Origin: an uncultured Myxococcales bacterium
GTDB lineage: Bacteria > Myxococcota_A > UBA9160 > SZUA-336
Reading direction: 5' to 3'
NCBI GenBank assembly: GCA_964454165.1
Contig: CAYVQJ010000084.1
Span: 44,077 to 108,076 of the forward strand
Length of the DNA stretch: 64,000 bases
Position numbers and translations under genes: made by a program. Below the pieces are notes generated by a model, which searched no databases, had not been told where the DNA came from, and was given only the letters and a program-made list of their open reading frames with translations. Positions 13,727 to 59,724 of this stretch are shown here, piece after piece. Within the stretch, counting starts at the first letter, position 1, and every line of letters starts with the position of its first letter.

Positions 13727-14134
13727 CTAGGCGCCGAGCCGGCCGCCGACGAACCCTACGACCTCGGCGGCCAGGTCGACCGCCGTCGCCGCGGCGTCGC
13801 GTGTATAGACGCGCGCGGGGATGCTGTCGGGCAGTCCGTTGGGATAGCGCGTCGGAACGTAGTAGCCGTCGAGGATCGCCCAACGGAGGACGTGCTCTCG
13901 GAGCGCCGGCTCGGCTTCTCCAGCCTCGTGGCAGAGCCGCTCGACGGAGTGGCCGAGGACGATCTCCTCACCTTGCGCGTAGCGCAGCGCCTTCAGGGCC
14001 TTCTCGGCCAGCTGCTGCGCGAGGAAGCAGGCGATGTGATAGCCGCCCTGTTCGGCCAGTGCGCGCGCCCAGCGCAGGTCCTCGACTGCCTGCTCGAGCC
14101 AGCGCCTGCCCTCTTCATGCGGGGTCCTTCTCAA
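13727..14134 (-). CDS. HEPN domain protein (toxin-type partner of the upstream MNT)
   Basis: 135 aa; [21 protein letters not shown] is the classic HEPN helix signature; overlaps the MNT gene 3' end by 20 nt. Confidence 0.8.
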
Positions 14135-14471
14135 CGAGCACTACCTCGCCGGCCAGCGCGTGCCGGAGGAACGGAAGGGAGCGCAGCCGCTCGAACTCGT
14201 CGGGCGTATAGCACAGCAGATCGGCGTCGACCGACAGCGCGAGAAGCGAATAGAGCTGCTCCAGGCGCTTGGCGATGGGCAGACTCGTCTCCATCACCAC
14301 GAGGATGTCGAGATCGGTCAGCAGATCCGCGCGCCCGCGTGCATACGAGCCGAACAGGCTCACGCGGCGGACGTCCGAGCGCGCGCCGAGGCGCTCGCGA
14401 ACCACGCTCACCGCTTCCTCGAGACGGCGCCGGTACGCCGCTCGCTTCTGACTCAGCCCGTGCTCCATCAT
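14115..14471 (-). CDS. minimal nucleotidyltransferase (MNT), antitoxin-type partner of HEPN
   Basis: [21 protein letters not shown] = GS-x-ARG...D-x-D nucleotidyltransferase motif. Confidence 0.85.
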
Positions 14472-21508: not shown

Positions 21509-23871
21509 CGCGTCCCGGCGGCCTGCCGCTCGAGACGCTCCACGCCCTGGCGCGCCACCAGGTTGCGCGGCTCCAGTGAAGCCGCGCGCCGGTACGCCGC
21601 GAGCGCAGCGGTCTCCTGCTGGCGCGCGCGAGAGAGGAGCGCGGCGCTCGCTTCCTCCGGTGCAGCCGTCTTCGCCTCCTCGCGCGAGCGCCGTGCGAGC
21701 AGCTCCTGCGCGGCGGCCCGATGCGTCCATGCGGAGTGGTCCGCGGGATTGCCTGCGACCGCCTGCTCCGCGAGGGCGAGCGCGTGCTCCAGCTCGTCGC
21801 GCAGGAAGTACGCGCCCGCGAGGGTGAGGCGGGCGGCCGCGGGGCCTGTCACGCGCTCCTGCTGCCACTCTGCGTCGGCCGCGGCCTGCAGCGCTTCACG
21901 CGCGCGCTCGAAGCTCGACTCGCGCAGCGCGACGAGCCCGAGCGTGAGATGGGCGGGACCGAAGCTCGGGTAGAGCTCGGCGGCGCGGGTGGCGAGCCTG
22001 CGCGCGCGCTCCAGGTCGCCCAGCGCGAGCGCGGCGTTTGCGGCGTCGCGCAGGATGTTCGCGTTCGCCGGATCGAGCGCGAGCGCGCGGTCGTAGGCAT
22101 CGCGTGCCTCGTGGACGGCGGCGTCCGCCGGGGCTAGCGCCGCGAGGGCTTGCGCCGTGCGTGCGAGATTCGACCAGGCGTAGCCGCGCTCCGCGAGCGA
22201 AAGCGCCTGCGCGTGGGCCTCGCGCGCCCGCAAGAGGTGGGAGCGCGCGCCGCCCGCCGCGCCGCTGGCCAGCTGCTCGTGCGCCGCGCCGAGCAGCACC
22301 CAGGCGCTCTCGTGGCGAGGATCGAGCGCCACGGCGTGCTCGAGCCGCTCGACGGCGGCTGCCGGTGCGCCGAGCGCGAGCGCGCGCTCGCCGTCCGCCA
22401 GAAGCACGTTCGCGCGCAGCGGCACCGCCACCCCGGCGGCGAGCGCGACGGCTACGAGTCCCCAGGCGAGCGACTGCAGCGCGCGCAGTGCGAGGGTCGC
22501 GCGCGGCGCGGGCGTCTCCAAGCGCGCTGCGTCGCCGACGCGCGAGAGCAGCGCGACGTAGCTCGTGGCGAGCGTGCCGAGCGCGATCACCGTGAAGCTG
22601 AAGAGCCCCTGTACGACGAAGGCAATCAGCCCCGCTGCCAGCGCAATCGCGAGGGCGGCCTCGGGTCCGGCTCGGACTGCGCGGCGGAGCGTCCGGAGCA
22701 GCGCGAACCCGAGCGCCGCATACGCGGCAAGCCCGACGCTTCCCTGTGTCGCCGCGATCTGCAGCAGCGAAGCGTGCGCGCGCTTGGCGTTGCCGTTCCA
22801 CTCGACCAGCCAGTAGCCCGGCTCGCGATAGCGGTCGAAGCCGACGCCGAACGCGTCGAGCCCCACGCCGAGCACAGGCTGGTCGAGGAACATCGCGAGC
22901 GCGGCTCGCCAGATGTAGATGCGAGGCTCGTCCGAGAGCGACGCGAGCGACGCCAGGCGCTCGCCGGCGAACGGCAACGCCTCGCCGAGCGGAGCGCCGT
23001 GCGGGAGCGCGGCGAGTGCGAGGCCGCCCGCGGCGAGCGGGATCGCCGCCACCAGCGCGCGCGCGGCAGCGCGCTCACCGGCCCAGAGCCAGCCCACGGC
23101 GAGCGATAGGTGTGCGGCCCCGAGCGCGAGCCAGACCGCGCGCGTGAGCGAGAGCGCGCAGAGCAGCGCGCAGAGCACGGCGAGTGCGACGGCCGCGAGC
23201 GCCATGCCCTTCCTGCCCGTGCGCCACGACGCGAGCGCGAGCCAGGCGGCGAGCGGGTACACGGTCGCGAGGTACGCGCCGAGGAAGTTGGGCCGGCCCA
23301 GCGTCCCGATCGGGCGGATCCCGAAGTCCGGGTCCCAGGCAAGCGGGTCGAGGCGGACGACCTGGACGCCTGCGTAGGCGCAGACGACGAGCGCTCCCGC
23401 GAGCGTGGCGGCAACGAGCACGCGGCGGGCGCGCCGGCTCTCCGCACACGAGCGGGTGGCGAAGAAGAGCACAGCGTAGGCGGTCACGCTCTCCAGGCCG
23501 AGCCAGCTCCGATCCGCGCCGACGACCGAGGTCCAGCGACTCTCGCTCCAGATGGTCGACGCGAGCGCCGAGAGCAGCAGACCGAGCACGCCCCAGCACA
23601 GGGGATCGCGGCGCCACTCCGCGTCCAGGCGCGTCGCGGAGAGAGCGCGAGAGAGCCACGCGCACGCGCCGACCCCTGCGATGAGTAGCGCTGCGGTGTG
23701 GAGCAGAACGACCTTCGGGTACTCGAACGGGTCGTGCGTGCGCGTGGAGAGCGCGCTGGCGGAGAGCGCTGCGTGCAGCGCGACGATCCAGAGCAGCGCC
23801 CGCGCGCGGCGCTCAGCCACGCGCGCGTCCCGGGCTCCGGCGTCGTTGGTCCGTGCTGGCAAGCCAGACAC
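21505..23871 (-). CDS. O-antigen ligase (Wzy_C) family membrane protein fused to C-terminal TPR repeats
   Basis: Polytopic N-terminal half with the NAKRAHASLLQIAATQG motif characteristic of O-antigen ligase/Wzy_C; C-terminal ~330 aa Ala/Leu-rich TPR-like repeats. 3' end overlaps the convergent lipoprotein gene by 4 nt. Confidence 0.8.
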   Translation of the reverse strand: MSGLPARTNDAGARDARVAERRARALLWIVALHAALSASALSTRTHDPFEYPKVVLLHTAALLIAGVGACAWLSRALSATRLDAEWRRDPLCWGVLGLLLSALASTIWSESRWTSVVGADRSWLGLESVTAYAVLFFATRSCAESRRARRVLVAATLAGALVVCAYAGVQVVRLDPLAWDPDFGIRPIGTLGRPNFLGAYLATVYPLAAWLALASWRTGRKGMALAAVALAVLCALLCALSLTRAVWLALGAAHLSLAVGWLWAGERAAARALVAAIPLAAGGLALAALPHGAPLGEALPFAGERLASLASLSDEPRIYIWRAALAMFLDQPVLGVGLDAFGVGFDRYREPGYWLVEWNGNAKRAHASLLQIAATQGSVGLAAYAALGFALLRTLRRAVRAGPEAALAIALAAGLIAFVVQGLFSFTVIALGTLATSYVALLSRVGDAARLETPAPRATLALRALQSLAWGLVAVALAAGVAVPLRANVLLADGERALALGAPAAAVERLEHAVALDPRHESAWVLLGAAHEQLASGAAGGARSHLLRAREAHAQALSLAERGYAWSNLARTAQALAALAPADAAVHEARDAYDRALALDPANANILRDAANAALALGDLERARRLATRAAELYPSFGPAHLTLGLVALRESSFERAREALQAAADAEWQQERVTGPAAARLTLAGAYFLRDELEHALALAEQAVAGNPADHSAWTHRAAAQELLARRSREEAKTAAPEEASAALLSRARQQETAALAAYRRAASLEPRNLVARQGVERLERQAAGTR

Positions 23872-24592
23872 ACGCGAGTGTCGCGAGAAGCGCGCTGGTC
23901 CACTGCGCCTCGCTGAGCCCGAGCGCCAGCGGCCGGGCGGTGCGCACGAACTCGATCGCGAAGCGCGCGGCGGCGGCGAGGGCGAGATAGCGCATGAAGA
24001 TCTCGCCGTCCCTCGCGACGCGGGAGCGCGCCCGCCAGAGCGCGCCTGCGATCGCGAGCAGCGCGAGCAGCTCGTAGAGGGCAGCGGGATGCACGCGCAC
24101 TCCGGCCGGATGCGGCCAGCCCGCGACCGCGTTCACGTACGCGACGCCCCACGGGAGCTGCGTCGGGGTCCCCCAGTCGCCGTCGCCCGCGAGGTGGCAG
24201 CCGATCCGCCCGATGGCGAGCCCGACCGCGAGGGCGGGCGCGGCGCTGTCAGCGGCGGAGAGCCAGCGCACGCGGTAGCGGCGGATCGGCCAGCCGGTCG
24301 CGAGCACTCCACCGAGAAGCCCCCCGTACCAGACCAATCCCGACCCGCTCGCGACGAAGCCGACGGGATCGGCCGCGAACGCCTCGGGGTGCTGGAACGC
24401 GAGGTGGATCCGCGCACCGACGAGCCCCCCGACCAGGCCGCATAGCACGATCCACCACGCCAGCTCCGCCGGCACCTGCTTGCGCCGGAAGTCTGCGTGC
24501 ATCACGAGCCCACCGGCGAGGAACGCGAGCGAGAGCATCAGCCCGAAGGACTGGATGGCGACCCCGCGGATCTCGAGCAGTACCGGAAGCAC
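23813..24592 (-). CDS. lgt: prolipoprotein diacylglyceryl transferase
   Basis: WYGGLLGG and GRIGCHLAGDGDWG (Lgt signature G-R-I-G-N-F-I-N-G-E-like). GTG 24592 with AGGAA RBS 11 nt upstream; 3' end overlaps the ligase start region. Confidence 0.8.
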   Translation of the reverse strand: MLPVLLEIRGVAIQSFGLMLSLAFLAGGLVMHADFRRKQVPAELAWWIVLCGLVGGLVGARIHLAFQHPEAFAADPVGFVASGSGLVWYGGLLGGVLATGWPIRRYRVRWLSAADSAAPALAVGLAIGRIGCHLAGDGDWGTPTQLPWGVAYVNAVAGWPHPAGVRVHPAALYELLALLAIAGALWRARSRVARDGEIFMRYLALAAAARFAIEFVRTARPLALGLSEAQWTSALLATLACVWLASTDQRRRSPGRARG

Positions 24593-24684
24593 GCCGAGAG
24601 TGTTCCTCCGCGCGGCGCGCGAGGAAAGTCCGCCCCGACAGGGCGGACGAGTACAATGAGCGCAACGACGAGAGGAGGCCCCCA

Positions 24685-25905
24685 ATGCAAGTTGCGCCGG
24701 TCACCGGGCTCGGGGACGAGATCAACGAGATCCGTCTCCGCACGGCAGAGATTGTCACCAAGGAGATCATCCCCAACGAGAATTCGCTGCGGTACGGCAG
24801 CGGCGACAAGCGCCGCGACCTGTTCCGCGGCATCCAGGCGAAGGTCAAGCAGGCCGGCCTCTGGGCGCCCCACCTTCCCGAGGAATACGGCGGGATGGGG
24901 ATCGGGTTCCTGAAGCACGCCTACATGAACGAGATCACGGCGTGGAGCCCGTTCTCGGGCGCGCTCTTCGGCTGCCAGGCGCCGAACTCCGGCAACCAGA
25001 CGATCCTGGTGAAGTACGGGACGCCCGAGCAGAAGAAGCAGTTCCTCGAGCCGTTGGTGCGCGGCGAGATCGAGTCGTGCTTCTCGATGACGGAGCCCAA
25101 CCAGCCGGGCTCGGACCCGTACGCGATCCAGACGCGCGCGGTTCGCGACGGCAACGACTGGGTGATCAACGGGCACAAGTGGTTCACGTCCAACGCGCGG
25201 CGCGCCGCGTTCGCGATCGTGATGTGCCGCACCGAGGGCGACGACGACAGCGGCTCGCGCGACCGCATGACGCAGATCATCGTGCCGATGGACACCAAGG
25301 GCGTGAACATCGTGCGCAGCGTGCCGGTGTGGGGGCACGAGCAGGGCGACCACTGCGAGATCCTCTACGAGAACGTGCGCGTGCCCGTGGAGAACGCGCT
25401 CGGGCGGCGCGGCAGCGGGCACCAGGCGGCTCAGGATCGCCTCGGCGCCGGTCGCGTGTTCCACTGCATGAGCTCGGTCGGCCAGATGTGGCGCGCGTTC
25501 GACCTGATGGTGCGCCGCTCGATGGACCGCGAGGTGCACGGCGGCAAGCTCGAGACCAAGCAGTTCGTGCAGGGCTTCATCGCCGACTCGTACATGGACA
25601 TCCAGAGCGCGAGGCTCATGACGCTGCACTGCGCGCACCAGATGGAGGCGGGCGTGGACCCGCGCACGATGATCTCGGCGATCAAGATCTTCGTACCGGC
25701 GGCGCTCGAGCGCGTGGCCGATCGCGCGATCCAGGTCTGGGGCGCGGCGGGCGTCTCTTCGGACCTGCCGCTCGAGGGCATGTACCGCGGCGCGCGCACG
25801 CTGCGCATCGCCGACGGCCCCGACGAGGTGCACCGCATCCTGATCGCCAAGAACGTGCTCAAGCGCTTGCACGCCGGTGAGTCGTGGGACTTCGGGGTGA
25901 TGTGA
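24685..25905 (+). CDS. acyl-CoA dehydrogenase
   Basis: 406 aa; ACAD N/M/C-domain pattern (CFSMTEPNQPGSDP, IFVPAALERVADRAIQVWGAAGV). Confidence 0.9.
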   Translation: MQVAPVTGLGDEINEIRLRTAEIVTKEIIPNENSLRYGSGDKRRDLFRGIQAKVKQAGLWAPHLPEEYGGMGIGFLKHAYMNEITAWSPFSGALFGCQAPNSGNQTILVKYGTPEQKKQFLEPLVRGEIESCFSMTEPNQPGSDPYAIQTRAVRDGNDWVINGHKWFTSNARRAAFAIVMCRTEGDDDSGSRDRMTQIIVPMDTKGVNIVRSVPVWGHEQGDHCEILYENVRVPVENALGRRGSGHQAAQDRLGAGRVFHCMSSVGQMWRAFDLMVRRSMDREVHGGKLETKQFVQGFIADSYMDIQSARLMTLHCAHQMEAGVDPRTMISAIKIFVPAALERVADRAIQVWGAAGVSSDLPLEGMYRGARTLRIADGPDEVHRILIAKNVLKRLHAGESWDFGVM

Positions 25906-27727: not shown

Positions 27728-27787
27728 CCGCGTCACGTGCTGCTCGGTCCGACCACTCTCGTAACGAGAGTTGAAGCCGGAGCGGCA

Positions 27788-30700
27788 GTGAGTCGAGTCC
27801 TGATCGCGCTCCTCGTGATCGCAATGAGCGCGCCGGCCGGCGCGGCGCTGGTTCCCTACGAGGCAGTCGACGGCAGCGCCGGGACTGCGCGCGGCAACAA
27901 CCTGGTGGACGTGACCGCCACCAACGCGTGTGGGTTCACCATCGTCGCCGGGAACATCAACCTGACGGGCTGCCGCGACCGCAACGGGGTGCTGTGCCCC
28001 ACGAACGCTGCGTGCGACCTGGACCGCGTGCCCGCCGGGCGCTGCACGCTCGGCAACAATGCCGCGTGCCTGTGGCCGAACGGCGCCGGGTTCTGCACCG
28101 CCGATGGCAACGTCGGCTGCCTGGTGAACCTCGACTGTACGAACAAGGGACTCGCGGGCACCTGCGACACCAGCCAATGCCCGGGCGGAGACTGCAGCGG
28201 GTGCGCCTGCCAGGGCACCGACGACACTCTTGCAACGTTCGAGACGAACGCCGGGCGCTGCGGCGGAACCATCGGTGTCTGTTCCGACGGAGACAGCGAG
28301 TTCGCATACGCACCCTCGATCTCCGGCGGGCTCTGCTTCAACCTCGTCGCGCCTACGGACCGGCCGTTCAACTGCGGTCTCGAGGCGGGCCAGGCGCTGA
28401 CGGGAGCGCGCTCGTCCTTCGAGAATCCCCCGATCTCGCCGTCGCTACAGCGCGAGTCGCCCGCGGGTCCGATCGTCGAGCTGCGCACGACGCAGGTGTA
28501 CGACATCGGGGCCCTGGAACCCGGGCGCGGCAGCATCCGCCGCTTCTCGCTGCTGGCGGATTCCTACTGGGAGGATCCGACCTGGTCGGACAAGACCCTG
28601 ACGGGCGCTGCGGCGAACGCGCACATCTGGACCCTGTGGTGCGACACGCCGACGGGCTGGTCGACGGACGACAACCTGCCGAATGGGCAGAGCTGCTGGA
28701 ACTCGACGGCCAACTCGATCGGATACATCTGGACCCAGGACGTTCCGGCCAACGACTTCCTTCCAGCCGGGTCGCTCACGACGAACCTCGATGTCGACAT
28801 GAACGGTGTCGCGGATTGCCCGCCGCACTGCGGTTTGAACTACGACCTGCACACGTTGGAGCAGCTCGCGCTCGAGGCCGTGCTTCGCCTCGACGTACGT
28901 GCGGGAGCTCAGCTCGCGCTGGAGTCGTTCGTCGATGGCCCGGCGGGCGCGGGAGATCTGGTCGCGGTCGCGAGCGTCGTCAGCCACGTGTGGCTGCCCG
29001 CGATCGATCAGCGCTGCTGGATGGGCGGCGATCCCGAGGCCATCTGCTCGACCTGCGTGGGCGGCCTTTGCAGCGGCTACCTGGCGCTCAGCTGCACCGT
29101 GGGCCGCGACTGTGCGCTCTACACCGGACGCTGTAGCGACAGCGAGCAACCCTGCAACCCGGCCGGCGCCGGCACGGCGTGCCCGGGCGCACAGCTCTGC
29201 CGCTCCTGCGTAGGCGTATTCGCGAGCGGGCTGTGCGTCGGCATCGGCGGCGCCTGCCGTCTCGACTCCGACTGCGCCAACAACAACTGCGGCGACCAGA
29301 ACGGAAACAACATCTATCCGGAGCCGACCGCCCACAACCCGCTCGCGATCCCGGTCGGCTACAACACCTACGGCTTCGCCGAGCTCGAGCTCGAGACCAG
29401 GTGCAACCCGACCCGCCCCGGGCGCCTCGGCCTGGTCACCCACTTCGGACGAGCACTGGCGGCGCCGCTCGCGCTGCTGGTGACGACCGGCGCTGCCGCA
29501 ACCGAGGTGCGCGATCCCGACCTGGGGGGCGCTCCAGCTCCGAATGACACCGGCGCTCTAGGCCTTGTGAGTGGCGCAGCGGTCGGAATCGCAGCTTGGG
29601 GTGGCTATCCCCTGGAAAACGGCAGCTACGCGGTCGGAACGGTGTTTCCCGTCGATCCGACCGGTCCGCCGTGCTGCGCTGCCACGGGAAACGTGACCGG
29701 CGTGCTCGACAAGGCGACGGAGAGCGTGCGACCCGTGATCACGGAGAATGCCGGCGCGATCACCTGGCCCGAGGGGAGCGCTGGGTCGGTACAGACAGCG
29801 CCGTTGCGCACCTCGGGCTGGGGAGGCGGAGCGAACCGAACCCCCGGCTGCCCCGGGGACAGCTCGCTCGTCGGCGCGCCCGCGCCGGATCCCGGACCGT
29901 GCAACGATCCTCTCGGGGGATCGTCGTTCTGTACCGGCGGCGACTGCGAAGGCAACACCGGCGCGGACGACGTGCGCACCACGGCGACGATCGGCGGTGT
30001 GGCGAATGTCCCTGCGCTCAACGCCCGGGCGAAGGTCCCCGACCGGTTCGCGACGGGAACCTCGGCCCCGACGCTCTACGGTGTGGCCACATTCACGGGC
30101 CTGGACGTGGACGTGCTCTCGCCGAGCGACACGGATTTCTCGGCCGCTGTCGAACTCCTGCACTGCCCGATGATCGGCGCGTGCAGCGAGGCGCCGACGC
30201 AGGACTGCATCCGCGACGCGGATTGCGGTGCGGGAAACACCTGCCTGAACCGCGTCAAGCGCTGCGTGACGCTGGAGCCCGACTGCGAGGACCCCGACAT
30301 GGATGGGGTCTACGTGTGCGCCGGGGGTGACAACTGCCCCGATAGGTTCAATCCCGACCAAGCGAACTTCGAAGGAGACGCGCTCGGCGACGCGTGCGAT
30401 GCCTGTGAGACGGTCGTGAACGCCGGCGTGGACACCGACATGGACGGGGTGGACAACGCGTGCGACACCTGCACCAACCAGGGGAACCCGCAGCTCGCCG
30501 GGACGCCGGTGCTGAACCGCACCTTCGTCAGCCACCAGCGCGACGACGACGCGGACGGCCGCGGCAACCGCTGCGACTTCGACTACAACAACACGGGCGT
30601 TGCGATCACCGCCGGGGACTTCAACGACATGAAGTTCTCGCTGCTTCCGAGCTCGGGTTTCACTGCGCTGAACACTTGCGGCGCCACGACGGCCGAGGGT

Positions 30701-30946
30701 GGATCGGGCGCCACGCAGCCGTGCGGCGAGTTCGATCACGACGGCATGGGTTCGACGGTCAGCGCCGGAGATTTCAACCTGTCGAAGGCGGCCGTTGCGG
30801 CAGGCGGTGTGATCAACACCAACTTCCCGAAGTGCACGGCCTGCACAGTCGGCACTGGCTGGTCGAATGTGATCGGCCCGGGAGCTCGCCTCGGGCGGCC
30901 GGTCTGCCAGACCGCCGTCCCCGGGCGCTGCGTCTTCGCGCCTTGA
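27788..30946 (+). CDS. large secreted Cys-rich protein with thrombospondin type-3-like calcium-binding repeats and a conserved ~200-aa C-terminal domain
   Basis: GTG 27788 with GGAG RBS; signal peptide VSRVLIALLVIAMSAPAGAA; many D-x-D-x-D-G-x-x-D-x-C repeats (DPDMDGV, DTDMDGVDNACDTC, DDDADGRGNRCDFD). The C-terminal domain is shared with the 57808-59724 paralog. Confidence 0.75.
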   Translation: MSRVLIALLVIAMSAPAGAALVPYEAVDGSAGTARGNNLVDVTATNACGFTIVAGNINLTGCRDRNGVLCPTNAACDLDRVPAGRCTLGNNAACLWPNGAGFCTADGNVGCLVNLDCTNKGLAGTCDTSQCPGGDCSGCACQGTDDTLATFETNAGRCGGTIGVCSDGDSEFAYAPSISGGLCFNLVAPTDRPFNCGLEAGQALTGARSSFENPPISPSLQRESPAGPIVELRTTQVYDIGALEPGRGSIRRFSLLADSYWEDPTWSDKTLTGAAANAHIWTLWCDTPTGWSTDDNLPNGQSCWNSTANSIGYIWTQDVPANDFLPAGSLTTNLDVDMNGVADCPPHCGLNYDLHTLEQLALEAVLRLDVRAGAQLALESFVDGPAGAGDLVAVASVVSHVWLPAIDQRCWMGGDPEAICSTCVGGLCSGYLALSCTVGRDCALYTGRCSDSEQPCNPAGAGTACPGAQLCRSCVGVFASGLCVGIGGACRLDSDCANNNCGDQNGNNIYPEPTAHNPLAIPVGYNTYGFAELELETRCNPTRPGRLGLVTHFGRALAAPLALLVTTGAAATEVRDPDLGGAPAPNDTGALGLVSGAAVGIAAWGGYPLENGSYAVGTVFPVDPTGPPCCAATGNVTGVLDKATESVRPVITENAGAITWPEGSAGSVQTAPLRTSGWGGGANRTPGCPGDSSLVGAPAPDPGPCNDPLGGSSFCTGGDCEGNTGADDVRTTATIGGVANVPALNARAKVPDRFATGTSAPTLYGVATFTGLDVDVLSPSDTDFSAAVELLHCPMIGACSEAPTQDCIRDADCGAGNTCLNRVKRCVTLEPDCEDPDMDGVYVCAGGDNCPDRFNPDQANFEGDALGDACDACETVVNAGVDTDMDGVDNACDTCTNQGNPQLAGTPVLNRTFVSHQRDDDADGRGNRCDFDYNNTGVAITAGDFNDMKFSLLPSSGFTALNTCGATTAEGGSGATQPCGEFDHDGMGSTVSAGDFNLSKAAVAAGGVINTNFPKCTACTVGTGWSNVIGPGARLGRPVCQTAVPGRCVFAP

Positions 30947-47554: not shown

Positions 47555-48424
47555 CTAACTCGTGCGGCGGCGCAGGGCGGCGAGGCCAGCGAGGCCGAGG
47601 CCGAGCAGCAGGACCGAAGACGGCTCCGGAATCGGATCCGAGTCGGTCATGAAGCGCTGCTCGATCACGCTGATGTGCGCGATCCCGTGCCCGATCCCGA
47701 TCCCGTCCCGGTTGCGGATGAAGCGGCGCCAGTTGCACCAGCAATCGCCTTCGCCGCCGCAATCGCCGTCGTGGTCCCACTCATCATCGCCGTCCCCATC
47801 GTGCTCCGAGCCGCGGGCATGGCGCTGCCACCCCGGCGGAACCTCGCCGTCCCAGCCGTGGTGCTCGCCGCGCTCCCAGCCGTAGTGATTGCCCTGGTCC
47901 TCGTGGCGCCGTCGCCGGACGCTCTCGAGCAGGATGTCCTTGGTGACGTGCAGCGTGTTCGCGCCGTCGCCGAGGCTCGCGCTATCGCTCGTCCGCGTGG
48001 AGGTGCGGGTGTCGAACACGCCGAGCGCCACCCCGGGAAATTCGTCGATGGTCTCCGCGATCGAAGCCGAGGAGTTGCCGCCGGCAGCGAAGCCCGTGAA
48101 TGCGAGCTCCACCGCCACGATTCGGTCGCTCGAGGTCACGGTGTAGTCGAGGACGATGTCGAGCGTCTTTCCCCGGGTGACGACGATGGGGCCCACCAGC
48201 CGGAAGCCGTCGTGGTCGAACTCGATCTCGATCAGATCGATGTCGAAGCTCCGGGTGCCCGTCACGGTCACCGAGAAGTCCGAAAAGCTGAGGTTGCTGC
48301 CCTCGGCGGAGAAGGTCCCCGGGCTGCCGTTTACGTCGCTGAGCGACAGCGCTCGCGCGAGCGAAGGGTCAAGGGCAAGAAGGCAGACGAATAGCCCAAC
48401 GAGATGATTCCACCGGTTTCGCAC
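47555..48424 (-). CDS. PEP-CTERM sorting-domain secreted protein with His/Asp-rich region
   Basis: C-terminus PIPEPSSVLLLGLGLAGLAALRRRTS = PEP motif + TM helix + Arg cluster. Signal peptide from VRNRWNHLVGLFVCLLAL (GTG 48424). HEDQGNHYGWERGEHHGWDG...EHDGDGDDEWDHDGDC acidic/His-rich stretch. Confidence 0.7.
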   Translation of the reverse strand: MRNRWNHLVGLFVCLLALDPSLARALSLSDVNGSPGTFSAEGSNLSFSDFSVTVTGTRSFDIDLIEIEFDHDGFRLVGPIVVTRGKTLDIVLDYTVTSSDRIVAVELAFTGFAAGGNSSASIAETIDEFPGVALGVFDTRTSTRTSDSASLGDGANTLHVTKDILLESVRRRRHEDQGNHYGWERGEHHGWDGEVPPGWQRHARGSEHDGDGDDEWDHDGDCGGEGDCWCNWRRFIRNRDGIGIGHGIAHISVIEQRFMTDSDPIPEPSSVLLLGLGLAGLAALRRRTS

Positions 48425-48548
48425 GCTCCTGCATCTCCCTGTAACCCTCCAGGGAAAGCGCGAGCTCCAGAAGCGCGCGAATCGGGCGGGGTCCCGCGCA
48501 AACGGAAACCCCAACCTTCATGGGTACAGTAACCGAAACCGGGGTCTG

Positions 48549-51079: not shown

Positions 51080-53167
51080 GTGGATCCGATCGTCGCCGAG
51101 GAGCTCGCGCTGCTCGAGCAGGTCCTCGGCGTGCTGCGCCGCTCGACGGGACCGCGTCCGCCCTCGGAGGCCGCGGTGGTCGGCGAGCTGGTGCGCATCC
51201 GCGATTCGCTGGTCTCGGGCGACGAGTCGAAGGACCGGCTGGCGCTCGAGGACGAGTGGCAGCGCTATCAGGCGCTGCTCGCGCAGCTCCGGCGCTCGCG
51301 CGAGAGCACGCTCGGCGTGGATCCCGACGCGCCGTACTTCGCGCACCTGCGGCTGCGCGACGAGCGCGGCGAGCGCGATCTGTGTCTGGGCCGCGCCACG
51401 CGGATCGAGGCCGGGGTGCGCATCGTGGACTGGCGCAACGCGCCGATCTCGCGCGTGTTCTACCGCTACCAGCAGGGCGACGAGTACGAAGAGGAGATGG
51501 GCGGGCGGCTGCACGCAGGGGTCGTTTCCGCGCGCCGTACCGTGGCGGTCGCGCACGGCCGCCTCGAGCGAGTGGACGCGCCGGAGGGATCGTTCTCGCT
51601 CGACCCGCGCGCCTCGGACGGCTGGCGCCGGCTCGAGCGCGAGAGCGCGCACCTCGGCGGCGGCGAGGGCAGCGCGGTGCGCGTGTACGGCGCCGCGGAG
51701 GGCCGCGGGCGGCGGCTGGGCACCGACACCGGGGGCGGGCGCCGCCGCGGCGACAAGCGCCTGCCCGAGATCTCCGCGCTGATCGACCCGGTTCAGTTCG
51801 AGGCGATCGCGCGGCCCGACTCGGGGATCGTGGTCGTGCGCGGCAGCGCGGGCTCGGGCAAGACCACCGTCGCGCTACACCGAATCGCGTGGCTGGCGTA
51901 CGCGGACGAACGCGTCGACTCACCGGCCACGCAGTTCCTGACCTTCTCGCCCGCGCTCTGCGAGTACGTGCGTAACGTGCTGCCCGCGCTTGGCGTGCGG
52001 CGCGCGCGCGTCGCGACGTTCGAGGCCTGGACGCACGCGCAGCGCCGGCGACTGTTTCCCGAGCTGCCGCGCGAGGTGCGCGACGACACGCCGACGCCCG
52101 CGCGGCGCCTGAAGCTGCACCCGGTCCTGGCGCGCGTGCTGGAGGAGCACATCAAGGACACGCCCGGCGAGCGCACGGCAGAGCAGGTGATCGACGACTG
52201 GGCCAGCGCGCTCACCGTGCGCGACCGCCTCGCGCGCGCCTTCCGTGAGCGCGCGCCCGACGCCTTCCGCGGCGACGAGCTCGCGCGCGCCGTCGACTGG
52301 TGCCGCGAGCGCGTGGACGAGCTGAACGCGCTCGCCGACGGCGACCCGGTCGTCGAGGCTGCACTCGACGCGGAAGACGAGGCGCTGCTGCTGCGCGCCT
52401 GGCAGCTCCGCATCGGCCCGCTGCCGGACCGCTTGAACCGGCCGCTGCGCTATCGCCACCTGGCGATCGACGAGGCGCAGGACTTCTCTCCGCTCGAGCT
52501 GCGCCTGCTGCTCGAGTGTCTCGACGAGCGCGGGAGCGCCACGCTGGCCGGCGACGCGCAGCAGCAGGTGTTCACCGAGAGCGGCTTCGAGTCGTGGCAG
52601 GAGCTGCTCGCCGAGATCGGCGCATCCGCGGCCGAGGTCGACACGTTGCGCGTCTCGTACCGCTCGACCGAGCCGATCGTGCGTTTCGCACACGCGCTGC
52701 TCGGCGATCTCGCCGAGGAGGACGCTCCACCGCGCGCAACCCGGCACGGTCCACCCGTCGAGCTGTTCGAGTTCCACGACCCCGGCGCTTGCGTGGCGTT
52801 CCTGTCCGACGCGCTCAAGGAGCTGGCGCGAGCCGAGCCCCTCGCTTCGGTCGCGGTGCTCGCCGCGTCGCCGGCAGCCGCGGCCCTCTACCACGACGGC
52901 TTCGTGCAGGCGGAGGTGCCGCGCCTGCACCGCGTGGAGCAGTACGACTTCCGCTTCACCCCCGGTGTCGAGGTCGCCGAGATCGAGCAGGCCAAGGGCC
53001 TCGAGTTCGACTACGTGGTGCTGGTCGACGTCTCGGACGAGGCCTTCCCGCCGACGCCACTCGCGCGCCGCCTGCTCCACGTCGGCGCCACGCGCGCCAT
53101 GCACCAGCTCTGGCTCACGAGCATCGGCCCCCCCGCCGCGCTGGTGCGTCGCGCTTCCGGCGCGTAG
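51080..53167 (+). CDS. UvrD-like/HelD-like superfamily-1 DNA helicase
   Basis: Walker A GSAGSGKTT; DEAQDF (motif II); VSYRSTEPIV region. Start chosen at GTG 51080 to avoid overlap with the divergent lysA. Confidence 0.8.
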   Translation: MDPIVAEELALLEQVLGVLRRSTGPRPPSEAAVVGELVRIRDSLVSGDESKDRLALEDEWQRYQALLAQLRRSRESTLGVDPDAPYFAHLRLRDERGERDLCLGRATRIEAGVRIVDWRNAPISRVFYRYQQGDEYEEEMGGRLHAGVVSARRTVAVAHGRLERVDAPEGSFSLDPRASDGWRRLERESAHLGGGEGSAVRVYGAAEGRGRRLGTDTGGGRRRGDKRLPEISALIDPVQFEAIARPDSGIVVVRGSAGSGKTTVALHRIAWLAYADERVDSPATQFLTFSPALCEYVRNVLPALGVRRARVATFEAWTHAQRRRLFPELPREVRDDTPTPARRLKLHPVLARVLEEHIKDTPGERTAEQVIDDWASALTVRDRLARAFRERAPDAFRGDELARAVDWCRERVDELNALADGDPVVEAALDAEDEALLLRAWQLRIGPLPDRLNRPLRYRHLAIDEAQDFSPLELRLLLECLDERGSATLAGDAQQQVFTESGFESWQELLAEIGASAAEVDTLRVSYRSTEPIVRFAHALLGDLAEEDAPPRATRHGPPVELFEFHDPGACVAFLSDALKELARAEPLASVAVLAASPAAAALYHDGFVQAEVPRLHRVEQYDFRFTPGVEVAEIEQAKGLEFDYVVLVDVSDEAFPPTPLARRLLHVGATRAMHQLWLTSIGPPAALVRRASGA

Positions 53168-53254
53168 TTGACGCGGCGCGTAATCGCTCGAAGTCGAAAA
53201 TAGTTGCGCCACGCGCTTGCTCGTCGACCACACTCCACTTCTGGAGGGAACGAC

Positions 53255-53620
53255 ATGTCGACGGTCAGGACGGCCTTTCTGGCTCTGGCGCTCGCGAGCG
53301 TGGCGTTGCTCAGCCCGGCGCGGGGCGGGGCCGCGATCTGCGGCTTCCCGGGTGTGGTGCTCGCGGGCGCATTCGCCGGCGGTTTTGGCTGGGTCACGCT
53401 GTTTTCTCCCATCGCGCCGTTCCCGCTCACCGGGATCGCGAGCACCCTGCTCGCCGGACCGATCGGTCCCGCGTGCATGGACATGTGGACGACGGCGGCG
53501 CTCGGGCCGCCTCCGCCGAACTTCCTGGCGGTCTGGGGTACCGGGCCCGGGTTGTGCGCGGGTGCATGCTCGGCGGTCGCGGTGTCCTGTTCCGCAACGC
53601 TCTGCGCGGCGTATCCGTGA
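53255..53620 (+). CDS. small secreted hydrophobic Gly/Ala/Pro-rich protein with 7 Cys
   Basis: RBS GGAGGG 6 nt before ATG 53255; signal peptide MSTVRTAFLALALASVALLSPARG. Mature ~97 aa, low complexity, Cys-rich (AICGFPG..., GPACMDMW, LCAGACSAVAVSCSATLCAAYP). Stop overlaps the next start (GTGA). Confidence 0.5.
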   Translation: MSTVRTAFLALALASVALLSPARGGAAICGFPGVVLAGAFAGGFGWVTLFSPIAPFPLTGIASTLLAGPIGPACMDMWTTAALGPPPPNFLAVWGTGPGLCAGACSAVAVSCSATLCAAYP

Positions 53621-54276
53621 GCGCACGGCGTCGGCTCACTGCGCCGGCGCTGTCGCTCCTCGTTGCGCTCTCGGGCTGTGAGCCGAGTGCTATGCCGGGA
53701 CCGGAAGCGAGCGCCGCTGCCACGGGGTCCGAGGTCGCGATCACGCCGGTGGTCGCGCCGTCGGCGGCGAGCCTGTACGGCGACGACGTCTCGCGCCTGC
53801 GCTACCAGGGTCGCAGCGACGACGAGACGCTCGTCGCGTCCAGCGCCGGGCCGTACGTCCGCGTGGGTGAGTTCAACGCCTGGCTCGGCAGCTATCCCCT
53901 GCGCATCACGAGCGACGACCTGCCTGCCGCGCGACGACAGGCGCTCGAGCAGCTCGTCACGTTCAAGCTCTTCGTCGCGAAGGCGCGTGCGAGTGGCTAC
54001 GAGGAGCGCCTGGGCAAGGCGTCGGATCAGAGGTCACTGGCGTTCGCGTACATTCGCGACCAGGTCACCGACGTCGCGTCCATCTCCGACGAAGCCGCGC
54101 GCCAGTACGAGTCCGGGCATCCGGAGCTGCTGGCGCAGATCGGCTCCGACGACGTCCCTGTCGACGTGCGAACGCTGGCCATCAAGGGCTCGATGCGCGG
54201 GGAGCAGCTCTGGACGCGCGTCCAGGAGTGGATGACCGAGGCCGGGATCCGTTACGAGGAGGGGGCTCTGCAATGA
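53617..54276 (+). CDS. lipoprotein with SurA-N-like / PpiC-type chaperone-like domain
   Basis: GTG 53617; lipobox LLVALSGC. Pattern resembling the SurA N-terminal chaperone domain (family assignment tentative). Stop overlaps the next start (ATGA). Confidence 0.5.
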   Translation: MSARRRLTAPALSLLVALSGCEPSAMPGPEASAAATGSEVAITPVVAPSAASLYGDDVSRLRYQGRSDDETLVASSAGPYVRVGEFNAWLGSYPLRITSDDLPAARRQALEQLVTFKLFVAKARASGYEERLGKASDQRSLAFAYIRDQVTDVASISDEAARQYESGHPELLAQIGSDDVPVDVRTLAIKGSMRGEQLWTRVQEWMTEAGIRYEEGALQ

Positions 54277-54938
54277 GTGGGATCGCGCTTGCGGGTCGGA
54301 GTCTGGCGCCGCTCGTCGCGGCCCTCCTGGTGGCGCACGGGCCCGCCGGGGCGCAGGAGGTGCCACCCGACGAGTCCGCGCGCACAGCACAGCTCACGAT
54401 CGACGCCGTCTCCGGCAACCTGCTCGCGGTCTCGCCCGCGCTGACCGGGCGCGGGCCGGGTCCGAGCGACGAGAGCGCACAGGTCGCGGCGACGGTCGTC
54501 GACGAGGTGAACGGCGACTTTCTCTCGGCGCCGCCGCTCGGCACTTCGAAGGGCGCGATCGACCGCACGGCCGACGCGAACGCCACGCTCGTCGACGCCG
54601 TCAACGGCTCGCTGCTTTCGTCCGCGCCGAACTCGGCGAACCACGGCGCGGTGGACCACGCAGCCGACGTCGCCGCGACGTCCGTCGATGCGAACACGGG
54701 GGACTTGCTGAGCGCCCCGCCGACGTCGACGTCGCTTGCGAGTCAGGGCGCGCGCAACCACGCCGTCAACGTCGCGGCCATGGTGGTCGACGCCGTGCTG
54801 GGATCGCTCACCACAGCACCTGCTCAGTTCGTCTTCCCGGAGGTGCCGGTTCCTGCGCTCGCGCTCTGGTCCGCGCTTGCGCTCGGGGCTCTGCTCGTGG
54901 CCGGCGGCTGGCGCCGAGCGCGACGCGCAGCGTCCTGA
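54273..54938 (+). CDS. secreted tandem-repeat protein with PEP-CTERM-like C-terminal anchor
   Basis: Signal peptide MSGIALAGRSLAPLVAALLVAHGPAGAQE; four ~40-aa repeats (x-VD-A-VNG-x-LLSAPP...). C-terminus FPEVPVPALALWSALALGALLVAGGWRRARRAAS = P-E-x-P motif + TM helix + Arg cluster. Confidence 0.5.
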   Translation: MSGIALAGRSLAPLVAALLVAHGPAGAQEVPPDESARTAQLTIDAVSGNLLAVSPALTGRGPGPSDESAQVAATVVDEVNGDFLSAPPLGTSKGAIDRTADANATLVDAVNGSLLSSAPNSANHGAVDHAADVAATSVDANTGDLLSAPPTSTSLASQGARNHAVNVAAMVVDAVLGSLTTAPAQFVFPEVPVPALALWSALALGALLVAGGWRRARRAAS

Positions 54939-55135
54939 GCCGCGGCGCGCAGACAGGTTCGCGACGAGGAGCTGGCAGCAGCGGATCTTCGCCTCGTTCG
55001 CCGCGCCGATCGCGAGCCCGCGCGCGCGGCGCGAACCGCGCGCGCGTTCGGAAAGAACACGTCGGGCCCGGCCAGGTAGACGCGCAGAGGTCGGGCCATC
55101 GCGCGAGTCTACGCGCGGAGCGGTAGGCTCTCGCG

Positions 55136-56353
55136 ATGACCACCCCCCTCGCCGACGATCCCTGGAAGGGCGCTAACCCCGTCGACCCCGCGTTTCGGCG
55201 CGATCCGTATCCCGCGCTGGCCCGGCTGCGCGAGCTCGATCCGGTCAACGCCACGCCGTTCGGCGTCTGGCGGCTCACCCGCTACGACGACTGCGTGCGC
55301 CTGCTGCGCCACTCGGGCGCCGGCGTGCGCCGCTCCGATGGCACCACGATGCGCAGCGCCGCGATGCCAGAGCAGTTCGTCGACGAGTTCATGCTGCAGC
55401 GCGACCCGCCGGCGCACACGCGCTTGCGCAAGCTCGTCTCCAGGGCCTTCACGCCGCGTGCGGTCGAGCGGCTGCGGCCGCGCATCGAGGCGATCGCGCA
55501 CGAGCAGGTGGATGCCGCGCTGCGCCGCGGTCGCATGGACGCGATCGCCGACTTAGCACTCCCGGTGCCTGCGACGCTGATCTGCGAGATGATGGGTGTG
55601 CCCGCCTCCGACCGCGACCGCTTCACCGAGTGGACCACGCGCACCACCCACTTGCTCGCCGCGCCGTTCCAGCCGCCCGACGTCGTCAAGGACGCGCTCG
55701 AGGCTGCCGGCGCGCTGCGGGGCTACTTCGAGGAGCGGATCGCCTCTCGCCGCGGCTCGCGCATCGACGACCTGCTCGGCGACCTGATCGCAGCGGAGGA
55801 AGAGGGTGATCGGCTCTCGCCGAGCGAGCTGCTCGCGCACGCTTCGGGCCTACTCGTTGCCGGCTTCGAGACCACGATCGGCCTCGTCGGCAACGGCATC
55901 CTCGCGCTGATCCGGAATCCCGCAGAGCAGGAGCGCCTGCGCGCGCAGCCCACGCTGCTGCCGGCCGCCGTCGAGGAGTGTTTGCGCTTCGACGGACCGA
56001 TCATGCTCACCGTGCGCATCCCGCGCGAGGACCTCGAGATCGGCGGCAAGACCATCCCGAAGGACGCGACCGTGATGGCGATGCTCGCCGCGGCCAATCG
56101 CGATCCCGCGAAGTTCCCCGAGCCGGATCGCTTCGACGTCGGGCGCCGGCCCAACGAGCACCTGGCCTTCGGCGGCGGCGTGCACTTCTGCCTCGGCTCG
56201 CATCTGGCGCGGATGGAGGCCGAGATCGCGATCGGGACGCTGCTCGCGCGCACCAAGAACCTGCGCTTGCAGGCACCCGACGCCGAGCTCGAGATGGGCG
56301 CGTCGCTCTTCCGCGTGCTGGCGCGCCTGCCGATCGCATTCGACGCGGCGTGA
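55136..56353 (+). CDS. cytochrome P450
   Basis: FGGGVHFCLGSHLARME heme loop, AGFETT I-helix, ECLRF. Confidence 0.9.
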   Translation: MTTPLADDPWKGANPVDPAFRRDPYPALARLRELDPVNATPFGVWRLTRYDDCVRLLRHSGAGVRRSDGTTMRSAAMPEQFVDEFMLQRDPPAHTRLRKLVSRAFTPRAVERLRPRIEAIAHEQVDAALRRGRMDAIADLALPVPATLICEMMGVPASDRDRFTEWTTRTTHLLAAPFQPPDVVKDALEAAGALRGYFEERIASRRGSRIDDLLGDLIAAEEEGDRLSPSELLAHASGLLVAGFETTIGLVGNGILALIRNPAEQERLRAQPTLLPAAVEECLRFDGPIMLTVRIPREDLEIGGKTIPKDATVMAMLAAANRDPAKFPEPDRFDVGRRPNEHLAFGGGVHFCLGSHLARMEAEIAIGTLLARTKNLRLQAPDAELEMGASLFRVLARLPIAFDAA

Positions 56354-57193: not shown

Positions 57194-57811
57194 ATGGAGA
57201 GAGGACTGATTCGCGATCTGCGGGTGTACCTTGTCGCTGCCGCGCTGGGCACGCTAAGCGGTGGATTCGCGTCGGCACAAGACAATCAGCCGCAGGGCCC
57301 CCAGCTCCCGAAGGCGGCACTCAGCACCTCAAGCGGCGCAGCCTCTGCCCCCGCGCCTCGACCAAGAGAGCTCACGCTTCCGAAGAGGGGGGTTCTTCGT
57401 AGCGCCACTATCGTCGGCCGCAGCGGGGACCCGATCGAGCTAGAGGCGTTGTCGGAGAGCGACCGGCAGCAGGTCCTACGAAGCCTCGGTGCCGGGATGT
57501 CCCCGAGCGAGATCGACCAGCATCGAGCGTACGTCGCTGACCTCTACCAACTCGGCGGGATTTCGCAGGGTACGTGGGAATACACAGCCGGGCGCCAGTG
57601 CATGTACGGACCAGCACCAGCGCCGGTGGGTGTGACAGAGGACAAGCTCAAGAGGATCGTGGACCAGAACCGCAACCTCCCCGCCCGCGACCTGTGGAAG
57701 TTGGTGATGTCACTGCCTCCGGAGACACCGACCACGGCGGAACCCCGCCCCTTGATCGTCCGCCTCGGCGCGCCCGACGGCCCGAATTGCGTGGGACTCT
57801 CCGAGCGGTGA
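57194..57811 (+). CDS. secreted hypothetical protein (lower-GC islet)
   Basis: RBS GGGAGG before ATG 57194; signal peptide MERGLIRDLRVYLVAAALGTLSGGFASAQD. ~63% GC vs ~72% background; stop overlaps the next start (GTGA). Confidence 0.5.
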   Translation: MERGLIRDLRVYLVAAALGTLSGGFASAQDNQPQGPQLPKAALSTSSGAASAPAPRPRELTLPKRGVLRSATIVGRSGDPIELEALSESDRQQVLRSLGAGMSPSEIDQHRAYVADLYQLGGISQGTWEYTAGRQCMYGPAPAPVGVTEDKLKRIVDQNRNLPARDLWKLVMSLPPETPTTAEPRPLIVRLGAPDGPNCVGLSER

Positions 57812-59724
57812 TTTACGTCCTCCTCTTCGCAATCGGTGCGTTGTTGCCGCTGAGCGCTCGCGCCGAATGCACTTCTGACCCATGGATCGACGGGCTGCGG
57901 CTTCCGGGCCTCGGAGGGCGACAATTCCCTGCGTTGACGAGCTTCGGCGTTATCGGATTAGTTCCAAACGCGCCCACGCCACTTCAGTGGGGGGACGCTC
58001 GCGTGTGGGCCGAGTCTGTCTTCGTACATGACGACCCTTTCTCCGTGACCTGGCAAGACTCAGCGTGCTGTATCTGGTTCACGAATCCCATTCCAGTTGG
58101 GACCTTTACTGACCCCTATTGCACGTTCATCGACGCTGTAAGCAATGAGGTTTGCACCCCCGGGTACGATGGCTGGATCGTAGTTGTCTCTGGGTGGGAC
58201 TTTACTTGGTGCCCGGGGACGGACATGTGCCTGGCCGACGCTGCCGACGGAAGCCGTGTGCTGTACGTAAAGGCCGGCTCGCTTCCGTACAGCCCGCCGG
58301 AATCTGGTCTCGGAAACGTCGTAGCTACGGGCATCGGCTGGCTGTTCGCTGGGCTGCCGTTCTCCCAGTTCATTGACGACACCATGCTCTCCCTCGCCGC
58401 CAGCGATGAGGGGAACGAGACGATCACGGTCTCTCAGTGTGCCGCGCTTCGGGGTGGGATGGGACGCGAACTTGGAACAACGTGCCTTTGCGCTCTCGAT
58501 CCGATCCCAAGCGTACCACCGAATAACGGTGCACCGTGCCAGTGCCCGTACTTCGAGCAGCCTCCCCAGGTGTGGGCCTGCCTCGACGGCAGGTGCACGA
58601 CGTTCTACGAAGTTCCGGCGCCGGATTGCCTGTGCATGTTGGGCGACAGCGACAGCGACGGAATCTGCAGCAATGGTGATTGCATCGGTGGCGCTTGCAC
58701 GGCGACGTCGTTTGAAGTCGCCCCGGAAAATCCTCGATGCGCCTGTCTGAACGGGATGTCAGAGGGACCTGGCGGTGTACCGCCGCCCCCCTGCGACGAT
58801 AACTGCAGGTCTGTGTCGAACGGAGGGCAAGCGGATCAAGATAACGACCAGGTCGGCGATGCGTGCGACAACTGCCCGAGCTTCTACAACAGCGACCAGG
58901 TGAACCGCCACGGGGGCGGGCCTGGGGATGCGTGCGACGACCCCGATGGGGATGGGTTAACCGACAAGACTGAGCTGACATCCTCCCTAACTAACCCGGA
59001 CGATGCTGATACAGACAATGACGGGATCGTTGATGGGATCGAATTTCTGGGACCGGACGGAAGCCCCGGGACAGGAGATGAGTCCAACCCACTGCTGAGT
59101 GACTCGGACGGGGATTCAGTTCCAGACGGGACGGACAACTGCCGCACGATCGCGAACGTGTCGCAAGCGAACTTCGACGGGGATGCGCTGGGAGATGCCT
59201 GCGACGCGTGCGCCACTCTCGCCGATCTCGGCACGGACCCAGATATGGACGGGGTCGACTCCGCATGTGACACGTGCACGTCCACTTTTAATCTGAGACT
59301 GCAGGGTACGCCCGGCGCGAACCGGACGCGCATGAGTGGCCAGGCAGATGACGATGCGGATGGCCGCGGTAACTCGTGTGACTTCGACTACGATAATGCC
59401 GGTGCTGTGATCATTGCGGCTGATTTCAATCAGATTAAGGCGTCTGTAGGTAAACTCGTATCTGCGTCGAATTGCGGTGCCGCACCCACGGATAACCAAC
59501 GCTGTGGCGAGTTCGACCACGATCAGGCGGGAGCGGCCGTGAGTGCCGGCGACTTCAACCAGGCAAAGGGCGCCGTGGGGAAGGTGATTAGTACAACGTA
59601 TCCGAAATGCGCAGCGTGCAGTGTCGGCACCGGCTGGTCTAATGTGCTTGGCAGCGGCGGCGAACGAATCGGTCGACCGGTCTGTGAATCGGCGGTTGCC
59701 GGTGCCTGCCAGTATGCGCCGTAG
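57808..59724 (+). CDS. secreted Cys-rich thrombospondin-type-3-repeat protein; paralog (C-terminal ~200 aa) of 27788-30946
   Basis: Signal peptide VIYVLLFAIGALLPLSARA. TSP3-like DxDxDG repeats. C-terminal domain near-colinear with the 27788 gene (NFDGDALGDACDAC...DDDADGRGNSCDFDYDN...CGEFDHD...AGDFNQAK...CAACSVGTGWSNVLG...GRPVCESAVAGACQYAP). ~57-58% GC. Confidence 0.7.
   Translation: MIYVLLFAIGALLPLSARAECTSDPWIDGLRLPGLGGRQFPALTSFGVIGLVPNAPTPLQWGDARVWAESVFVHDDPFSVTWQDSACCIWFTNPIPVGTFTDPYCTFIDAVSNEVCTPGYDGWIVVVSGWDFTWCPGTDMCLADAADGSRVLYVKAGSLPYSPPESGLGNVVATGIGWLFAGLPFSQFIDDTMLSLAASDEGNETITVSQCAALRGGMGRELGTTCLCALDPIPSVPPNNGAPCQCPYFEQPPQVWACLDGRCTTFYEVPAPDCLCMLGDSDSDGICSNGDCIGGACTATSFEVAPENPRCACLNGMSEGPGGVPPPPCDDNCRSVSNGGQADQDNDQVGDACDNCPSFYNSDQVNRHGGGPGDACDDPDGDGLTDKTELTSSLTNPDDADTDNDGIVDGIEFLGPDGSPGTGDESNPLLSDSDGDSVPDGTDNCRTIANVSQANFDGDALGDACDACATLADLGTDPDMDGVDSACDTCTSTFNLRLQGTPGANRTRMSGQADDDADGRGNSCDFDYDNAGAVIIAADFNQIKASVGKLVSASNCGAAPTDNQRCGEFDHDQAGAAVSAGDFNQAKGAVGKVISTTYPKCAACSVGTGWSNVLGSGGERIGRPVCESAVAGACQYAP

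Follow-up and report, generated by a model that had tools for sequence, protein, structure and literature searches.

Exosortase systems are widespread, and to our knowledge most of their chemistry has yet to be worked out, including what the substrate is transferred to and which helper proteins are needed. The S-layer protein mela_00855 of Methylomirabilis lanthanidiphila carries an IPTL-CTERM sorting domain (PMC8671808), so that this class of C-terminal signal can mark a major surface-layer protein. Here we examine a 64,000-nucleotide stretch of DNA from an uncultured Myxococcales bacterium (contig CAYVQJ010000084.1, positions 44,077 to 108,076; hereafter the window, with a G+C content of ~71%), in which three consecutive plus-strand genes at 53255-54938 encode exported proteins. 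Our preferred interpretation, held with some confidence, is that these three genes form the core of a cell-surface cassette that is rare, conserved and linked to exosortases. A preliminary description of the same DNA had proposed an uncharacterised cell-surface module with a PEP-CTERM variant tail; a conserved, exosortase-linked, exported cassette bears out the first part of that proposal, whereas the tail does not fit the class suggested.

Gene 1 (53255-53620, plus strand) encodes the 121-aa precursor of a small secreted protein, gene 2 (53617-54276, plus strand; GTG start) a 219-aa lipoprotein and gene 3 (54273-54938, plus strand) a 221-aa secreted repeat protein. As previously described, genes 1 and 2 overlap in a GTGA (53617-53620), and genes 2 and 3 in an ATGA (54273-54276). 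Genes 1 and 3 each have a GGAGG-type ribosome-binding site: direct reading of the plus strand gives a Shine-Dalgarno-like GGAGGG at 53243-53248, 6 nt 5' of the gene 1 ATG, and GAGGAGGGGG at 54256-54265, within the end of gene 2 and 5' of the gene 3 ATG. The three genes for exported proteins read as a single module, co-transcribed and probably also coupled in translation. Within 52900-55300 we found no tandem repeats, sigma-70 promoters, intrinsic terminators or Rfam families.

The G+C content at third codon positions (GC3) is 0.85-0.87 in the proposed frames (0.85 for gene 1 and 0.87 for gene 3), and the high-GC3 frame changes at both gene junctions. The ratio of nonsynonymous to synonymous substitutions (dN/dS) between close relatives is 0.31-0.48 across the three genes, and 0.31-0.41 for gene 1 alone. 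The GC3 periodicity, these ratios and the existence of homologues indicate that all three genes are real. An antisense open reading frame (ORF) at 53011-53484 has a GC3 similar to that of gene 1, but the homologues of gene 1 have conserved cysteines and motifs; together with the fixed synteny and a dN/dS of 0.3-0.4, this disposes of the earlier concern that gene 1 might be a spurious or unconserved ORF.

To assess gene order, we fetched the contigs carrying homologues of gene 1 recovered in profile searches. Gene 2 lay directly 3' of gene 1 in all 18 fetched loci, and gene 3 came next in each of the 10 with enough sequence, at gene 1 identities down to 33%; the order 1-2-3, whose conservation had been left for checking, is thus kept in every related locus that is long enough. 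Of 14 distinct loci, about 11-12 share the GTGA in which genes 1 and 2 overlap; that between genes 2 and 3 is less constant. Gene 3 orthologues are present in loci L005, L009, L010, L012, L018 and L019, and even the most distant trio, that of L010, is recovered with the window sequence in tblastn comparisons, gene by gene (E values of 3e-8, 5e-41 and 1.7e-9). The flanking genes vary, and include those for a HelD-like helicase, ThiS, a cytochrome P450, a TauE-like protein and a nucleoside deoxyribosyltransferase; because they differ between loci, it is the trio itself that forms the conserved unit. A scan of GTDB representative genomes returned a single metagenome-assembled genome (MAG), labelled Deltaproteobacteria bacterium, and a metagenome scan returned two further contigs. 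The family is very rare and known from metagenomes and MAGs only, and the sample names, where informative, indicate soil or farmland.

Past gene 3, at 54939-55123 (minus strand), lies the remnant of a nucleoside 2-deoxyribosyltransferase gene, with only residues ~3-25 and 65-92 recognisable, in different frames, and in the close relative L019 an intact gene of this kind (203 aa, PF05014) stands between gene 3 and a histidine-phosphatase gene. Since in the window a P450 gene (55136-56353) occupies the place of the intact L019 deoxyribosyltransferase, a replacement or insertion event is suggested. An imperfect inverted repeat spans the P450 start codon (55094-55141; 19-nt arms, 84% complementary, 10 nt apart).

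The evidence for a link with exosortases comes from two distant relatives, L010 and L018, in which a small exosortase gene immediately follows the trio and is itself followed by a gene for a polytopic membrane protein. The L010 exosortase (gene at 2540-3085 of that contig) scores 36.7 bits against PF09721 (cutoff 25.7) and 88.5 bits against the XrtH model TIGR04177 (cutoff 86), and that of L018 (2421-2957) reaches 84.7 bits with TIGR04177, just under the same cutoff. Both pass the exosortase/archaeosortase signature TIGR04178 (51.2 bits for L010 and 38.7 bits for L018, against a cutoff of 23), and both are enzymes of ~180 aa in which the Cys, Arg and His positions are retained. The enzymes adjoining the cassette appear to be of the short XrtH type, not the EpsH/XrtA-like type that had been anticipated. 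The product of the fifth gene has a SEC-C tail and a faint XrtH_assoc match (E 0.09) in L010 and a TPR tail in L018, and these two proteins have no detectable relationship to each other. Because the trio, an exosortase and a polytopic membrane protein occur together in both loci, the ancestral cassette plausibly comprised five genes; and because two relatives carry a small exosortase beside the trio, the cassette probably builds a cell-surface structure. Just past the five-gene cassette of L010, a putative transposase-like ORF of 260 aa (3854-4636, minus strand) hints that the cassette may be mobile.

Gene 3 encodes the candidate substrate. Its signal peptide would be cleaved at about A-G-A/Q-E, and the mature protein contains five tandem repeats of 31-34 aa (54393-54827, plus strand; anchors at residues 43, 76, 107, 138 and 172), rather than the four of ~40 aa counted originally. 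The repeats are acidic, with the core x-V-D-x-V-x-G-x-L-L-S-A-P-P ... G-A-x-D-x-x-A-D, and comparing one half of the protein with the other gives a repeat score of z = 26, with no repeat detected at the DNA level by Tandem Repeats Finder. The protein ends in a tripartite sorting-type tail (54849-54926, plus strand), composed of V193-P-A-L-A-L-W-S, the hydrophobic helix A-L-A-L-G-A-L-L-V-A-G-G-W and the basic cluster R-R-A-R-R, which stops three residues before the stop codon. The same order of motif, transmembrane (TM) helix and basic cluster was found in all six orthologues examined, and agrees with the general criterion for exosortase-type C-terminal sorting signals.

No sorting-domain model matched the full-length gene 3 product (TIGR02595 at E <= 1). 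Scanned by itself, the tail matched just two models, with 13.6 bits for midcut_by_XrtH and 11.7 bits for IPTL_CTERM (E 0.25; cutoff 20.5), the latter aligning over model positions 1-26 of 27 from V193-P-A-L. A close orthologue, P0012, which shares 59% identity with gene 3 and was its single close homologue in a word-indexed protein search, has a tail that scores 17.0 bits with IPTL_CTERM (E 0.0055). The L010 tail scores 19.5 bits with midcut_by_XrtH and 10.5 bits with IPTL_CTERM (TIGR04174), and the L018 tail, which reads T-P-T-L-T-F-W-G, scores 17.1 bits with midcut_by_XrtH. Judging from these alignments, the gene 3 tail is an exosortase-type signal, with V-P-A-L-x-x-W-S as the probable register; since both aligning models begin at V193-P-A-L-A-L-W-S, the P-E-V register proposed before is probably wrong.

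We weighed the possibility that the gene 3 tail is a degenerate form of the PEP-CTERM signal (P-E-V), served by a general exosortase of the EpsH/XrtA type that would also handle a canonical PEP-CTERM protein encoded 5 kb away, with gene 2 as an EpsD-like helper. Such a protein is indeed encoded at 47555-48514 (minus strand; 25.2 bits with TIGR02595, cutoff 16), so the source genome uses exosortase sorting and should encode some exosortase. This protein, correctly recognised beforehand as canonical and 5 kb upstream, with its gene placed at 47555-48424, ends in P-I-P-E-P, a TM helix and RRR, has a central region rich in His, Asp, Gly and Trp, and probably starts 3' of the TTG at which the longest ORF begins. 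Moreover, in L005 the gene 3 orthologue has a genuine PEP-CTERM tail (V-P-E-P, TM helix and RHRR; 19.7 bits), the P-E is retained in both the window protein and P0012, EpsD is the only family that gene 2 matches, and no dedicated exosortase adjoins the trio in the window, L005 or L019. However, the isolated window tail gave no match to TIGR02595 even at E <= 10, although the model recognised its two positive controls, the 47555-48514 protein and the L005 tail; the models that do align begin four residues past the P-E; the tails of L010, L012 and L018 lack any P-E; and the enzymes encoded beside the cassette appear to be XrtH-like. We consequently regard a PEP-CTERM signal in gene 3 as unlikely, if not negligibly so, and continue with the reading of an XrtH-linked cassette.

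Gene 2 was rightly described as a lipoprotein gene. Its product contains the lipobox L-L-V-A-L-S-G-C22, in agreement with the bacterial lipoprotein criterion ([LVI][ASTVI][GAS]C), and every orthologue has a counterpart, consisting of a hydrophobic stretch, G or A, and then Cys. Gene callers start gene 2 at the ATG at 53692; we prefer the GTG because the lipoprotein signal is kept in every orthologue, and the overlap with gene 1 is accordingly better supported. Five close homologues were obtained in the word-indexed protein search. The sole family match is to EpsD (TIGR02925, 22.9 bits against a cutoff of 108.9, E 5e-5) and spans profile positions 29-135 of 232, that is, the N-terminal chaperone half only. 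Pfam revealed no rotamase or isomerase domain, for which too few residues are left beyond the EpsD-matched part, and no SurA_N-type match at E <= 1. In an AlphaFold2 (AF2) model built from six sequences, a core at residues ~70-216, consisting of a hairpin, long helices and a closing strand, has a predicted local distance difference test score (pLDDT) of 70-90. Residues ~70-216 would form a SurA-like chaperone module devoid of an isomerase domain, a moderately supported assignment; as to the SurA-N likeness noted initially, neither Pfam SurA_N nor the searches of known structures given below gave a significant match.

As described before, the gene 1 product opens with a Sec signal peptide, here put at ~27-28 aa; the mature part, ~94 aa long, starts (A)-I-C-G-F-P-G, ends Y-P and consists of 46% Gly+Ala+Pro. 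Translation yields 121 aa and six cysteines (C29, C74, C101, C105, C112 and C117), not the 122 aa and seven cysteines initially reported. Four close homologues (70-73% identity) were found in the word-indexed protein search, and an exhaustive profile search of 1.84 billion representative proteins produced just 15 clusters, all of 120-137 aa. The family alignment comprises the signal peptide, a near-invariant A-x-C-G-[F]-P-[G] at the mature N-terminus, the motifs G-x-V-x-L-[FY], P-F and P-P-N-F, a cluster of cysteines towards the C-terminus and, at the very end, [FY]-P. The number of cysteines is six or four, with C74 and C117 kept or lost jointly, suggesting that these two pair with each other; the window protein probably forms three disulfides, the other two being predicted among C29, C101, C105 and C112. 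In agreement with the lack of a recognisable domain reported earlier, gene 1 alone had no Pfam, NCBIfam or PDB match, and a profile of 22 family sequences retrieved nothing from Pfam or PDB. Gene 1 thus represents a tiny family for which the searched collections contain no model.

The extreme hydrophobicity previously attributed to gene 1 is real in the window lineage, with a grand average of hydropathy (GRAVY) of 1.05 and a single charged residue in the mature part, but not in distant homologues, which have 5-12 charged residues. We rejected a polytopic membrane protein, because the distant homologues place charged or polar residues inside the hydrophobic stretches; as the hydrophobicity is confined to one lineage, the gene 1 product is better seen as a soluble secreted protein. 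A lipoprotein was likewise rejected, the residue before the Cys being I, L, M or H in most members.

We propose the following working model. The three products leave the cytoplasm via Sec, and the tail of the gene 3 protein (V-P-A-L-x-x-W-S, TM helix and Arg cluster) would retain this protein at the inner membrane until a short XrtH-type exosortase, which in the source genome would have to be encoded beyond the window, cuts it at the motif and hands it over for surface attachment. The membrane-tethered, SurA-like gene 2 lipoprotein would keep a client soluble in the periplasm, its most likely client being the gene 1 product, to which it is coupled through the GTGA overlap kept in most relatives. 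The gene 1 protein, which may be substrate-like, as first suggested, would then be delivered to the surface and assemble with, or on, the gene 3 protein. A more specific version, to which we give a small chance of being correct in full, is that the gene 1 family is a new kind of bacterial coat protein or co-substrate, disulfide-stapled, hydrophobin-like and of ~95 aa, carried by its own SurA-like lipoprotein lacking a peptidyl-prolyl isomerase domain and joined to, or assembled on, the repeat protein by an XrtH-type exosortase.

Several results weigh against this model. A scan of ~48 ORFs and tblastn searches with the exosortases of L010 and L018 found no such enzyme in the window, and in three of the five independent loci with sequence past gene 3 (the window, L005 and L019) unrelated genes lie past gene 3, namely those for a P450, a membrane protein and a nucleoside deoxyribosyltransferase, respectively. 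The window tail is below the curated cutoff in all of the tail models that it matched, and the cognate enzyme may differ between lineages, because L005 has a true PEP-CTERM tail. The connection of XrtH with IPTLxxWG-type signals is one that we assume from its TIGRFAMs/RefSeq name ('exosortase H, IPTLxxWG-CTERM-specific'); it would fit the adjacency seen in L010 and L018. As to the partner proteins, a profile of eight gene 2 orthologues did not retrieve SurA from PDB sequences, Foldseek comparison of the gene 2 model with PDB returned nothing significant (best SurA match E 1.9, TMq 0.39), and the AF2 model of gene 1 (five sequences), a check advised by the preliminary description, has a pLDDT of 42 and is unusable as support for the proposed role of gene 1.

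The sub-threshold scores of the window protein with all sorting-domain models, the window without an exosortase and the loss of the adjacent exosortase from the cassette in three of five lineages would also fit a window lineage with no sortase at all, in which the gene 3 tail would do no more than anchor the protein in the membrane, with the repeat domain left in the periplasm, and the trio would be a periplasmic or inner-membrane complex. We think this decidedly improbable, since orthologues that are only ~30% identical elsewhere retain the proline motif just ahead of the helix as well as the Arg cluster that follows, and exosortase genes adjoin the trio in L010 and L018. A role for the gene 1 product as a secreted, Cys-rich toxin, as a bacteriocin or as a peptide resembling ribosomally synthesized and post-translationally modified peptides (RiPPs), with genes 2 and 3 for immunity or handling and the P450 for modification, is a very remote prospect: the product is small, Cys-rich and secreted, and the downstream P450 has weak similarity to RiPP-associated P450s, among many others, but it is not kept beside the trio in L005, L019, L010 or L018, gene 1 has an ordinary Sec signal instead of a leader peptide, and no conserved maturase, ABC exporter or immunity-type gene was found. 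Because it is not conserved beside the trio in relatives, the P450 was also discarded as a member of the exosortase-linked module.

Several further features were noted elsewhere in the window. At 19328-21508 (plus strand), a 726-aa ORF with no Pfam domain has a tail formed by S-I-P-V-I-G, a hydrophobic helix and Q-R-R-R, with sub-threshold scores against PVV_CTERM (19.3 bits, cutoff 27), midcut_by_XrtH (13.6 bits) and IPTL_CTERM (7.9 bits); judged by this tail, its product may be a second, non-PEP, exosortase-type substrate. A gene at 21505-23871 (minus strand) encodes a 788-aa protein in which a Wzy_C/O-antigen-ligase-like domain is fused to TPR repeats, with weak matches to two families of PEP-CTERM systems, PrsT (E 1.4e-8) and the exosortase A-associated O-glycosylation ligase (E 6e-8), and is adjoined by lgt (23813-24685, minus strand), for prolipoprotein diacylglyceryl transferase. 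Two large proteins (27737-30946 and 57574-59724, both plus strand) share a near-identical, Cys-containing C-terminal end, F-P-K-C-x-A-C-x-V-G-T-G-W-S-N-V...C...C-x-[FY]-A-P, and match the Omp28-related selenoprotein domain model; the second also has thrombospondin-type repeats, as in the MYXO-CTERM protein MtsC. Finally, genes for a HEPN protein and an MNT-like nucleotidyltransferase, a pairing typical of toxin-antitoxin modules, lie at 13727-14471 (minus strand) beside a gene for an extracytoplasmic function (ECF) sigma factor.

The cassette is compact: at its fullest, with five genes, it encodes the small Cys protein and the chaperone-like lipoprotein together with a single repeat substrate, a short exosortase and a membrane partner. 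Having a single enzyme for a single substrate, it would make a tractable model system. If the hydrophobin-like reading of gene 1 were true, the cassette could reveal the target to which exosortases attach their substrates. In practice, work on it is limited by the rarity of the family, its restriction to metagenomes and MAGs and the exosortase gene missing from the window.

Small, hydrophobic, disulfide-bonded proteins form surface coats elsewhere, as do the fungal hydrophobins and the Streptomyces chaplins. The gene 1 product (~94 aa when mature, secreted, hydrophobic and with an even number of conserved cysteines) resembles them by functional analogy only: there is no sequence or structure relationship, the Cys pattern differs and the hydrophobicity is lineage-specific. 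Compared with the chaperones SurA, PpiD, PrsA and PEB4/Cj1289, gene 2 lacks a parvulin domain and is lipid-anchored, with no detected sequence similarity to them and no significant Foldseek match.

The PEP-CTERM/XrtA (EpsH) systems have in common with the cassette a signal of motif, TM helix and Arg cluster, a SurA-related periplasmic helper nearby and, in L005, a gene 3 orthologue with a genuine PEP-CTERM tail; unlike in those systems, gene 2 matches only the chaperone part of EpsD, without its isomerase domain, the window tail fails TIGR02595 and no polysaccharide-synthesis genes flank the trio. The likeness to mela_00855 lies in the description of its sorting domain only, since neither the repeat architecture of gene 3 nor the two partner genes are reported there (PMC8671808). 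The XrtH systems (TIGR04177) share with the relatives of the trio a ~180-aa exosortase at about the XrtH cutoff (88.5 and 84.7 against 86) followed by a polytopic membrane protein, and with the window a gene 3 tail that aligns only to IPTL_CTERM and midcut_by_XrtH; they differ in that the window lacks an XrtH, all tail scores lie under the cutoffs of these two models, and genes 1 and 2 match no XrtH-associated model. The cassette thus belongs with the dedicated exosortase-substrate cassettes, to which it adds two new partner protein families with no Pfam, NCBIfam or PDB counterpart.

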